Below are positions 49,462-50,278 of a stretch of DNA of 64,000 nt, piece by piece. The first letter of the stretch is position 1, and every line of letters begins with the position of its first letter. The notes beneath the pieces were generated by a model. The model was not told the DNA's origin and searched no databases. It was given only the letters and a program-made list of their open reading frames with translations. The stretch lies in the NCBI RefSeq assembly GCF_048403405.1, contig NZ_CP183129.1. One strand, written 5' to 3'. The stretch comes from Escherichia coli (GTDB lineage: Bacteria; Pseudomonadota; Gammaproteobacteria; Enterobacterales; Enterobacteriaceae). The position numbers were made by a program, and so were the translations under genes.

Positions 49462-49677
49462 AGGTGTATTGCTCAATCTTCGAACGGGGGGAGGATTGTA
49501 GCAGAATCGCATTTGAATGTGACCGAGTGAAAACCGCTAACCGGATGGCTGCGGATGTTTAAATCAGAGAGGGAAGGCCGAAACCGGAGTTCATCATGAA
49601 TCCATTAGACTTAGAAAATATCGGGTCGTAACGTTGTGTTATTACTTTTTCAGAGTTTACTAAGGAGAGGTTTACTC

Positions 49678-50127
49678 GTGGCGATTAATTTCAGCCCCAA
49701 GGTTGGTGAAATACTGGAATGCAACTTTGGTAACTATCCTGTTAGCCAGAATGGACAGTTCAGCACGACGTATTACGATGGCCGCATTCCACCTGAGATG
49801 ATAAAAAATAGGTTGGTTGTCGTGCTCAACGGAAAAATTAATGGCAACGCATGTATCGTCGTTCCATTATCAACCACTCGCGACCATGACAAGTTAAATC
49901 GTGGAATGCATGTTGAAATAGCCAGTAATGTTATCAATGACATGCATTTCTTTGATCAGCAGATACGTTGGGCTAAAGCCGACCTGGTACAACAAGTCAG
50001 TCGAAACCGATTAAACAGAGCAAGGACTTATCGGGGGTATCTTAATCAATGTTTGCCACATGAGTTGGTTGCAGACATACAGAGGGCAGTCATCAAGTCA
50101 ATCAATGCCATATCGCTCATAAATTGA
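49678..50127 (+). CDS. yifN: MazF/PemK-like endoribonuclease-toxin-family protein (YifN-like), intact, no adjacent antitoxin
   Basis: ORF 49636..50127; probable GTG start at 49678 with AAGGAGAGG SD 8 nt upstream; MazF-like layout (GEILECNFG...NRLVVVL...ACIVVPLSTTRD...FFDQQIRWAKADLVQQVSRNRL). Confidence 0.7.
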   Translation: MAINFSPKVGEILECNFGNYPVSQNGQFSTTYYDGRIPPEMIKNRLVVVLNGKINGNACIVVPLSTTRDHDKLNRGMHVEIASNVINDMHFFDQQIRWAKADLVQQVSRNRLNRARTYRGYLNQCLPHELVADIQRAVIKSINAISLIN

Positions 50128-50278
50128 CAATAAAATCACCATCCCCGATAATGACTCTGTAGCCCATAGAGGCCCTAAGTTTTCTCCCCTTGAGGGACCT
50201 GCGAAGCCCGGATTTTCCGGGCTTTTGCCATATATGTCCCCCCTCCCTGACTGACAATGTTTAATTCAAGGCACGATC

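Follow-up and report, generated by a model that had tools for sequence, protein, structure and literature searches.

Among the described systems closest to the locus reported here are the type III toxin-antitoxin systems (ToxIN, AbiQ/antiQ, CptIN and TenpIN), in which an endoribonuclease of Kid/MazF-like fold is paired with a non-coding RNA made of repeat units that binds the enzyme, inhibits it and is processed by it. These systems are found on plasmids and prophages, where they act in abortive infection and plasmid maintenance; in ToxIN it is the ToxI RNA that neutralises ToxN. In type I systems (Hok/Sok, TisB/IstR) an antisense RNA pairs with the toxin mRNA, and the toxins are small hydrophobic peptides. 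MazF and PemK are the textbook toxins of type II systems, in which one protein inhibits another, and genome pipelines label the YifN protein of Escherichia coli in the same way. We analysed yifN in a stretch of 64,000 nucleotides of E. coli DNA (NCBI RefSeq contig NZ_CP183129.1; referred to below as the window), where the gene is located between rep and ppiC. We report that a conserved small-RNA gene accompanies yifN and its intact homologues through unrelated genomic contexts, and on balance we favor the view that YifN and this RNA constitute one two-component, type III-like toxin-antitoxin module, a function suggested by the content and conservation of the locus.

The linkage between the RNA and yifN was seen from several directions. 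A BLAST search of all fetched loci with the ~120-nt element that follows yifN returned matches at the same position downstream of yifN homologues in unrelated contexts. A covariance model, R1, was built from 26 sequences, all of them found beside yifN genes. Next to each intact YifN homologue with an identity of 38% or more, R1 gives one strong match (37-91 bits). The homologues come from Enterobacterales, Pseudomonas, Xanthomonas, Legionellaceae, Shewanella, Roseateles, Herbaspirillum, Massilia and Rubrivivax; their loci have unrelated neighborhoods and are carried by chromosomes, plasmids and integrative elements. Within the window the small RNA is the only full-length match (79 bits, E = 4e-18, R1 E-values being rough owing to a shortened calibration), and the other match (14 bits, E = 0.5) is its terminator hairpin read on the opposite strand. 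The RNA usually begins 30-60 nt past the yifN stop on the same strand. Shewanella encodes it on the opposite strand. Massilia and Herbaspirillum have it upstream in divergent orientation, Herbaspirillum in two copies.

Because R1 was seeded from sequences adjacent to yifN, this protein-side survey is not an independent measure of the association; a pattern scan of metagenomes and counts in E. coli genomes are independent of that seeding. When 241 million metagenome records were scanned with a pattern describing only the RNA, there were 32 matches, and 31 of them are immediately preceded by a yifN-like gene of the same orientation. The other one is a chance match that lacks the terminator and neighbors an unrelated pyrophosphatase gene; a scan of IMG/VR with the RNA pattern gave no matches. 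Among 5426 complete E. coli genomes, 4015 contain the RNA, as many as contain the yifN coding sequence (CDS), and this query never matched on plasmids. The query comprised 83 nt, including 5 nt upstream of the RNA, and all 4015 matches have at least 80% coverage and at least 95% identity; among the matches listed, identity is 98.8-100% and none falls below 95%. The sole difference among the fetched alleles within the 83-nt query is at position 50157, before the start of the RNA. By contrast, yifN itself is often broken (1224 K-12 alleles and 15 partial copies), whereas the RNA is untouched.

The RNA gene (Table 1) begins 30 nt past the yifN stop, inside the spacer that separates yifN from ppiC. 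The -35 hexamer of its promoter, TTGACA (50124-50129), overlaps the TGA stop of yifN and is followed by a 17-nt spacer and the -10 hexamer GATAAT (50147-50152); both hexamers are kept in Superficieibacter. A sigma-70-type promoter precedes the RNA in 36 of 36 related loci, with a mean score of 9.3 out of 12 against 6.3 in shuffled sequences, and a score of at least 9 is reached in 23 of the 36 loci against 2.8% of shuffles. The -10 hexamer ends 5-6 nt ahead of the RNA, with 3 nt in two loci and 10 nt in one. Since every locus has this promoter and the strand and side of the RNA vary, the RNA is an independent gene and not merely a 3' untranslated region (3'-UTR) of yifN. The hairpin proper of its intrinsic terminator occupies 50203-50225 and is followed by UUGCC; in an alignment of 37 R1 matches, 99.4% of the cells at its pairs are paired. 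This terminator forms the 3' end of the small RNA and presumably that of the yifN mRNA as well. There is no terminator between the yifN stop and the small RNA, and therefore yifN transcripts probably read through into it. In many lineages an inverted repeat extends from the -35 hexamer (TTGACGATTTCGTCAA, TTGACATGAGCGTCAA and TTGATATCTAATCAA; ATTGACAAT at 50123-50131 in the window), for example at ~5478-5494 of locus L017, ~1203-1219 of L018, ~4476-4492 of L005 and ~5448-5462 of L041. These repeats could be operator sites for some regulator.

The ~120 nt that follow the yifN stop are nearly identical between E. coli and Superficieibacter, with no substitution in the 74-nt RNA, and synonymous divergence between the two coding sequences is saturated (dS 1.5-1.9). 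The RNA sequence is also identical in all eight fetched E. coli alleles. RefSeq carries no annotation at its position, Rfam 15 has no relevant match at E<=1 in 49300-50500, and no Rfam 15 match reaches the gathering score at the position of the RNA in 28 related loci. An sRNA downstream of yifN on the same strand has been detected in MG1655 by differential RNA-seq and northern blot, with an abundance that varies with the medium (Romero et al. 2014, Mol Microbiol 94:963, PMC4681348). That report establishes the existence of the RNA and gives no structure, family, link to YifN or function. An RpoD-SELEX study placed an RNA-polymerase peak in the ppiC-yifO spacer and assigned it to a ppiC promoter, which is not decisive for the small-RNA promoter.

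Upstream of its terminator the RNA forms two mini-hairpins whose structure is conserved. In the alignment of 37 R1 matches, 96.4% of the cells at paired positions hold standard pairs, compared with 86.9% for the shuffles, and both sides have changed in 10 of the 17 pairs; none of 500 shuffles attained these values. The shuffles ignore phylogeny; slid controls, which keep it, were 28-60% paired. Hairpin 1 is invariant in the R1 set, and its stem is GGC/GCC in two Pseudomonadaceae-type loci (L046 and L051) and CGG/CCG in Pasteurellaceae. The stem of hairpin 2 occurs as CCC/GGG, UCC/GGA and GCC/GGC, with CUUGA, UAGA and CUUCGA as loops. In both mini-hairpins, then, the stem covaries and the loop motif stays constant. 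The common unit is a G+C stem of 3-4 bp closed by a C-(A/U)-U-(N)-G-A (C-W-U-N-G-A) loop, repeated at a spacing of ~26 nt; two copies are present across lineages and apparently three in Roseateles/Rubrivivax. We also considered a long hairpin, the minimum-free-energy fold of the E. coli RNA, which pairs GGCCCUAAG with CUUGAGGGACC. The two mini-hairpins are preferred because Xenorhabdus and Photorhabdus cinerea break the long pairing and keep hairpin 2 by compensatory changes.

The protein encoded by yifN belongs to the MazF/PemK family, as the original prediction had proposed from sequence motifs. The Pfam domain PemK_toxin (PF02452) matches YifN residues 37-141 with an i-Evalue of 2.5e-10 over model positions 14-108 of 109; apart from this, the Pfam scan returned only a weak match to DUF7401. 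PF02452 is present in all listed YifN homologues. An AlphaFold2 model based on a 40-sequence alignment (pLDDT 76.3, pTM 0.71) has the SH3-like barrel and C-terminal helix of MazF/Kid, and the top 50 Foldseek matches of this model in the PDB are all MazF proteins, with E down to 6e-6 and TM-scores (target) of 0.66-0.79. Residues P7, G10, C15, P39, E40, K43, R45, S65, K100, R111 and L112 are invariant in the 40-member family alignment. Alignment with hhalign places YifN R45 on R25 of Bacillus subtilis MazF and S65 on T48, and E40 stands five residues ahead of R45, matching MazF E20 relative to R25. In MazF proteins R25/R29 is the catalytic Arg and T48/T52 the catalytic Ser/Thr position. The earlier mapping of motifs was roughly right, and the catalytic correspondences are set here as E40/R45/S65 for MazF E20/R25/T48. 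YifN is probably a MazF-fold endoribonuclease that keeps the catalytic Glu-x4-Arg and Ser/Thr positions.

YifN shares with MazF/PemK its family membership, its fold, the Glu-x4-Arg of the beta1-beta2 region, the Ser/Thr after beta3 and the C-terminal helix. It differs from Kid and its relatives in being ~40 residues longer, chiefly through an insertion of ~20 residues in the beta1-beta2 loop that carries the family signature DG(H/R)(I/L)PPEM(I/V)KxR. Unlike the type II members of the family, it has no gene for a MazE/PemI-type protein antitoxin, here or in related loci, and it always has an RNA gene alongside. The YifN clade is small and separate, with 30 clusters at E<1e-30 and 263 at E<1e-10 among 1.84 billion representatives. 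JGI names the protein 'YifN (PemK superfamily)', searches of NCBIfam and PADLOC left it unmatched, and in PHROGs it matches only phrog_15698, a family with no function assigned. Against Superficieibacter electus, whose yifN occupies the same rep-ppiC site, dN/dS is ~0.05, which indicates purifying selection; between the window allele and other E. coli alleles dN/dS is 0.04-0.10. As a separate observation, YifN residues 86-123 (window ~49933-50046) bear a weak, non-significant likeness to residues 47-86 of phage P1 DarA ('Defense against restriction protein A'; PDB 9ukm), at E 0.9-1.2 with the single sequence and the family profile alike, and PHROG 26978 matches the same stretch.

In order to find a protein antitoxin we examined the spacers of yifN and the neighborhoods of its relatives. 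The spacers contain only two open reading frames (ORFs) of at least 25 aa, one of 32 aa just before the rep start and one of 46 aa that begins with TTG on the minus strand and overlies the small-RNA gene; neither is supported. The neighborhoods came from 60 loci of YifN relatives in 100,044 species genomes, together with metagenome and plasmid loci; the genome scan used two peptide patterns, from which divergent members may have escaped. ORFs of at least 40 aa within 2.5 kb of a homologue were clustered for ~60 loci, and no cluster of neighbor proteins is common beyond close genera (Serratia; Photorhabdus; Vibrio; Massilia/Herbaspirillum). Same-strand ORFs that end near the yifN start differ between loci and are mutually unrelated: an S24/LexA-like repressor occurs only in Vibrio relatives, a helix-turn-helix protein only in Massilia/Herbaspirillum, a HigA-like protein in one locus, and ends of replication proteins on plasmids. 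An adjacent, co-transcribed protein antitoxin gene of the type II kind is absent from the window spacers, from the ~60 loci and from the small plasmids. We note separately that in Vinavirales-type prophages of Vibrio a distant PemK-like gene is found at the end of the element, immediately behind an S24/LexA-like (CI-type) repressor gene (12010-13132 in L004, Vibrio phage PQ189306; also L056 and L057); this repressor is the sole recurrent protein neighbor, in Vibrio only.

The description of yifN as a toxin gene with no neighboring antitoxin therefore holds for conventional protein antitoxins, in the window as in the ~60 loci, and fails for the conserved RNA gene that starts 30 nt after its stop. 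An RNA antitoxin had been listed as one possibility, with 49513-49677, upstream of yifN, as the place to look; the partner is downstream. The upstream region has no conserved RNA, no convincing repeats and no Rfam match, and Tandem Repeats Finder (TRF) reports zero tandem repeats in 49300-50400. Between E. coli and Superficieibacter the upstream spacer has diverged, apart from the stretches close to the rep start and to the ribosome-binding site of yifN.

The genomic contexts of the gene-RNA pair are diverse. In Serratia the yifN homologue lies between a lipoprotein gene and a MerR gene; in Pseudomonas elements and plasmid pND6-1 it has small ORFs around it and an integrase close by. A 6.3-kb Glaesserella plasmid has it immediately after a primase/rep gene, and on a 2.2-kb Shewanella contig it is accompanied by the end of an upstream ORF that we read as the C-terminus of a replication initiator; neither has a candidate protein partner. 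A paralogue of 157 aa with 55.7% identity is encoded by some 60 E. coli plasmids, most of which come from pigs and many of which are conjugative; it has its own RNA copy, which scores 79 bits (L115, NZ_CP122653, 4001-4592; also L010-L012). The plasmid and chromosomal RNAs have matching hairpin loops, so the two modules could conceivably cross-talk. In Pasteurellaceae a variant that R1 does not pick up follows a TATAAT box and consists of two almost identical hairpins, CGG-CUUAGA-CCG and CGG-CAUAGA-CCG, ~26 nt apart, and then a terminator (Glaesserella plasmid p16101, L114 2374-2470; Haemophilus paracuniculus, L053 5478-5570).

More distant relatives, with 27-35% identity to YifN, occur in alphaproteobacteria, Vibrio, Marinomonas, Paraglaciecola and a planctomycete. 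They have no R1 RNA and are followed by a different RNA of ~120 nt with its own terminator, on either strand (loci L054-L075; for example L056 5500-5640, L067 5480-5610 and L071 5470-5570). This second RNA has invariant AGAC and CAAGC motifs, 13 of its 19 predicted pairs show compensatory changes in an alignment of only 10 sequences, and it is not in Rfam. Since these distant relatives are followed by private RNAs of their own, a design in which a PemK-like gene is joined to a private small RNA appears to be general for this branch of the superfamily. The chances are about even that two statements hold together: that YifN and its RNA represent a new RNA-antitoxin (type III-like) family, in which a MazF/PemK RNase is neutralised by one short two-hairpin RNA, and that the design recurs with at least three RNA classes, namely that of the Entero/Pseudomonas/Burkholderiales group, that of Pasteurellaceae, and the ~120-nt class of alphaproteobacteria, Vibrio prophages, Marinomonas and others.

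We propose that such a module could work as follows. The 74-nt RNA would be made from its own strong constitutive promoter and probably also as the 3' end of the yifN transcript, and it would be abundant and presumably labile. Its two mini-hairpins may bind the two symmetric RNA-binding sites of a YifN dimer as pseudo-substrates and so keep the enzyme inactive, in the way that ToxI acts on ToxN. Should synthesis of the RNA cease, because the plasmid or island is lost or because a phage shuts off transcription, the RNA would decay, leaving free YifN to cleave cellular RNA and arrest growth. The ribonuclease activity, the toxicity, the direct contact between RNA and protein and the trigger are in this scheme what we infer from the genes. 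Several features are consistent with a toxin-antitoxin module: the RNA has a strong promoter of its own, yifN transcripts probably run on into it, the pair is mobile and patchily distributed, and the toxin gene is often broken with the RNA left untouched.

Compared with type III systems, the locus likewise has a toxin gene with a co-occurring non-coding RNA gene, and its RNA likewise contains 2-3 copies of a short unit. Described type III loci consist of an upstream array of 34-45-nt repeats, a terminator and then the toxin gene, whereas here there is a single RNA of ~74 nt, with its own promoter and usually downstream, in which the repeat is a degenerate unit of ~26 nt reduced to a mini-hairpin; no upstream tandem-repeat array with an intervening terminator is present. 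YifN matches PemK_toxin and no ToxN-family Pfam model, and it was not assigned to the ToxN/AbiQ, CptN or TenpN families by the Pfam scan or by PADLOC, which covers known defence toxins; inhibition by binding, as in type III, is what we propose here. Because the locus lacks the type III array and toxin families as well as the protein antitoxin of type II, we place it outside the existing families, as a kind of RNA-antitoxin module. The indexed literature that names yifN together with E. coli does not treat it as a toxin-antitoxin locus, and literature searches on type III systems with PemK/MazF turned up no account of such a pairing.

Several points weigh against a toxin-antitoxin module. K-12 keeps and expresses the RNA despite its broken toxin gene, which would suit an antitoxin and an RNA with another job equally well. 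The RNA is downstream with its own promoter and is not a 34-45-nt tandem-repeat array as in described type III systems. Hairpins of 3 bp are weak alone, a longer alternative hairpin is the minimum-free-energy fold in E. coli, and the pairing of hairpin 1 rests on few divergent lineages because it is invariant in the R1 set. PADLOC has no model for YifN, and the toxicity of YifN, its cleavage of RNA and its binding to the RNA are presumed from sequence.

Among the alternatives, the one that survives best is that YifN and the RNA work together as a ribonucleoprotein with no toxin-antitoxin role; for instance, YifN might process or stabilise the RNA, which would act on other targets in regulation or in RNA-guided defence. 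We consider this unlikely, though less so than the other alternatives. The strict co-occurrence and the constraint on the RNA fit it equally well, and the unchanged, expressed RNA of frameshifted K-12 hints that the RNA may be valuable alone. However, residence on plasmids, integrative elements and prophage-like regions, together with frequent loss or inactivation, is more in keeping with a selfish or defence module than with a regulatory ribonucleoprotein, the family keeps the catalytic residues of a toxin RNase without variation, and the RNA has no obvious conserved single-stranded seed besides its hairpin loops.

The small RNA might instead repress the translation or the stability of yifN mRNA by base pairing, as a type I-like or trans-acting sRNA antitoxin. 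The pyrimidine-rich UUUUCUCCCC (50180-50189) resembles an anti-Shine-Dalgarno sequence, type I RNA antitoxins do act by pairing, and the locus resembles type I systems in having an RNA gene adjacent to a toxin gene. Even so, we regard such control as improbable. In most loci the RNA and yifN share the sense orientation, so that complementarity to the mRNA is not built in, and pairing of the RNA without its terminator to the cognate yifN start region, computed with RNAduplex, was no better than for shuffled sequences (mean z=-0.05, 26 loci); this lack of excess complementarity argues against antisense control and sets the locus apart from type I. Moreover, type I toxins are small membrane peptides and not RNases, whereas YifN has an RNase fold.

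It is more doubtful still that YifN is a solitary, domesticated or inactive MazF-fold protein, followed by an element that is only a terminator, a 3'-UTR or an unrelated neighbor. The missing protein antitoxin and purifying selection of the kind seen in normal cellular genes would agree with this, but the co-occurrence data already contradict it: the element has its own promoter everywhere, may sit on the other strand or upstream, is conserved far beyond the needs of a terminator, and accompanies the gene through unrelated contexts and onto plasmids. Least credible of all is control by a protein antitoxin encoded elsewhere in the genome (a split type II system), for which nothing specific speaks beyond the cross-talk sometimes proposed among MazE-like antitoxins, and against which stand toxin-RNA units on the 6.3-kb Glaesserella plasmid and the 2.2-kb Shewanella contig without a candidate protein partner.

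Within E. coli the pair behaves as a cassette that is either present or absent. The yifN CDS is found in 4015 of the 5426 complete genomes, 15 genomes have a partial copy only, and ~26% are without the cassette. Alignment with an 'empty-site' strain, whose rep-ppiC spacer measures 86 bp, shows that ~45 nt of unrelated sequence replace window positions 49478-50265; no target-site duplication was seen at the cassette boundaries in this alignment. The statement in the original prediction that the K-12 copy is disrupted was accurate, and alignment places the lesion at T49887, a 1-nt deletion in codon 70 that shifts the frame; K-12-type strains are annotated as 'frameshifted'. The exact 62-nt K-12 allele around the deletion, which includes one linked substitution, is carried by 1224 of ~4015 carrier genomes. 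The gene is annotated as intact in 6 of 8 sampled carriers, with several protein alleles, and about half of complete E. coli genomes have yifN without the K-12 lesion, all six sampled genomes of this kind being annotated as intact. From purifying selection, patchy carriage and frequent breakage we conclude that yifN is functional but accessory, and that strains often lose it or carry it broken. In most strains the CDS shares 95.3-96.2% identity with that of the window. Two further observations concern the window allele: it is unusually far from the majority allele (dS 0.15-0.18) and is found at >=99% identity in only 429-533 genomes. In addition, a comparison of window 50232-50265 with K-12 shows that most E. 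coli have ~47 extra bases between the RNA terminator and ppiC.

Table 1. Coordinates of yifN, the small-RNA gene and associated features in the window.
Feature	Position	Strand	Basis and remarks
yifN CDS, 149 aa, intact; putative endoribonuclease (toxin component)	49678..50127	+	ORF and RefSeq CDS; Pfam; fold
Small-RNA gene, ~74 nt; proposed RNA partner (antitoxin) of YifN	50158..50231	+	Covariance model, conservation, co-occurrence, northern blot
Sigma-70 promoter of small RNA	50124..50152	+	11/12 consensus matches
Hairpin 1, GCC-CAUAGA-GGC	50162..50173	+	Stem variants in divergent lineages, loop kept
Hairpin 2, UCCC-CUUGA-GGGA	50185..50197	+	3/4 pairs compensatory
Intrinsic terminator, hairpin AAGCCCGGA-UUU-UCCGGGCUU and UUGCC tail	50203..50229	+	Inverted repeat; 7/10 pairs compensatory
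Shine-Dalgarno sequence of yifN, AAGGAGAGG	49662..49670	+	Sequence reading; 7 nt before start; kept in Superficieibacter
Upstream in-frame GTG, candidate second start of yifN	49636..49638	+	Gives 163-aa ORF; sole in-frame upstream start codon
Base T deleted in K-12, third base of codon His70	49887	+	Alignment with K-12-type strain; RefSeq 'frameshifted'
Extent of yifN and small-RNA cassette	49478..50265	.	Alignment with 'empty-site' strain

The ORF listing and the RefSeq annotation bear out the earlier description of yifN as an intact ORF of 149 aa with a GTG start at 49678 and a good Shine-Dalgarno sequence; the stop codon is TGA. An identical CDS in RefSeq, WP_000996699.1, is annotated as 'type II toxin-antitoxin system PemK/MazF family toxin', and strain TUM14771 is 100% identical across 1 kb around the gene. 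The GTG start is supported by the family alignment, since homologues begin with M-[AP]-I-N-F at this point. A Ribo-RET preprint reports initiation signals for yifN at the annotated start and at an in-frame start further upstream; going by the reading frame, the second signal may correspond to the GTG at 49636. The annotated start codon of rep ends at 49461 and ppiC reaches to 50279, which leaves spacers of 216 nt and 151 nt. The upstream figure of 165 nt given previously was too short because it had been counted from the longest rep ORF (690 aa) and not from the RefSeq start, an ATG (673 aa).

Two features of the upstream spacer may be mentioned for completeness. A promoter-like site for rep is located on the minus strand at 49523-49495. 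The yifN leader contains an ORF of 11 codons, MNPLDLENIGS (window 49596-49631, plus strand), with GGAG 6 nt before it. In Superficieibacter this ORF has equal length and stop position, a TTG start and 3 residues in common, and in K-12 it has a GTG start; it may be there by chance.

A role of the module in plasmid maintenance or in abortive defence against phages, as for ToxIN, is possible because it is found on conjugative and very small plasmids, integrative elements and prophage-like regions. If our interpretation is true, a whole branch of the MazF superfamily uses RNA antitoxins, and one of these is present and unannotated in most E. coli genomes, including K-12. Such a branch would be an evolutionary bridge between type II and type III systems, in which the same fold is held by a protein or by an RNA inhibitor. 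If the clade is controlled by RNA, the 'orphan toxin' calls made in surveys would be in part an artefact of seeking protein partners only. The proposal also offers a candidate function for an E. coli sRNA that was detected by northern blot in 2014 and never explained. E. coli would provide a tractable model, with K-12 as a natural toxin-null, ~26% of genomes as empty sites and about half of genomes free of the K-12 lesion.

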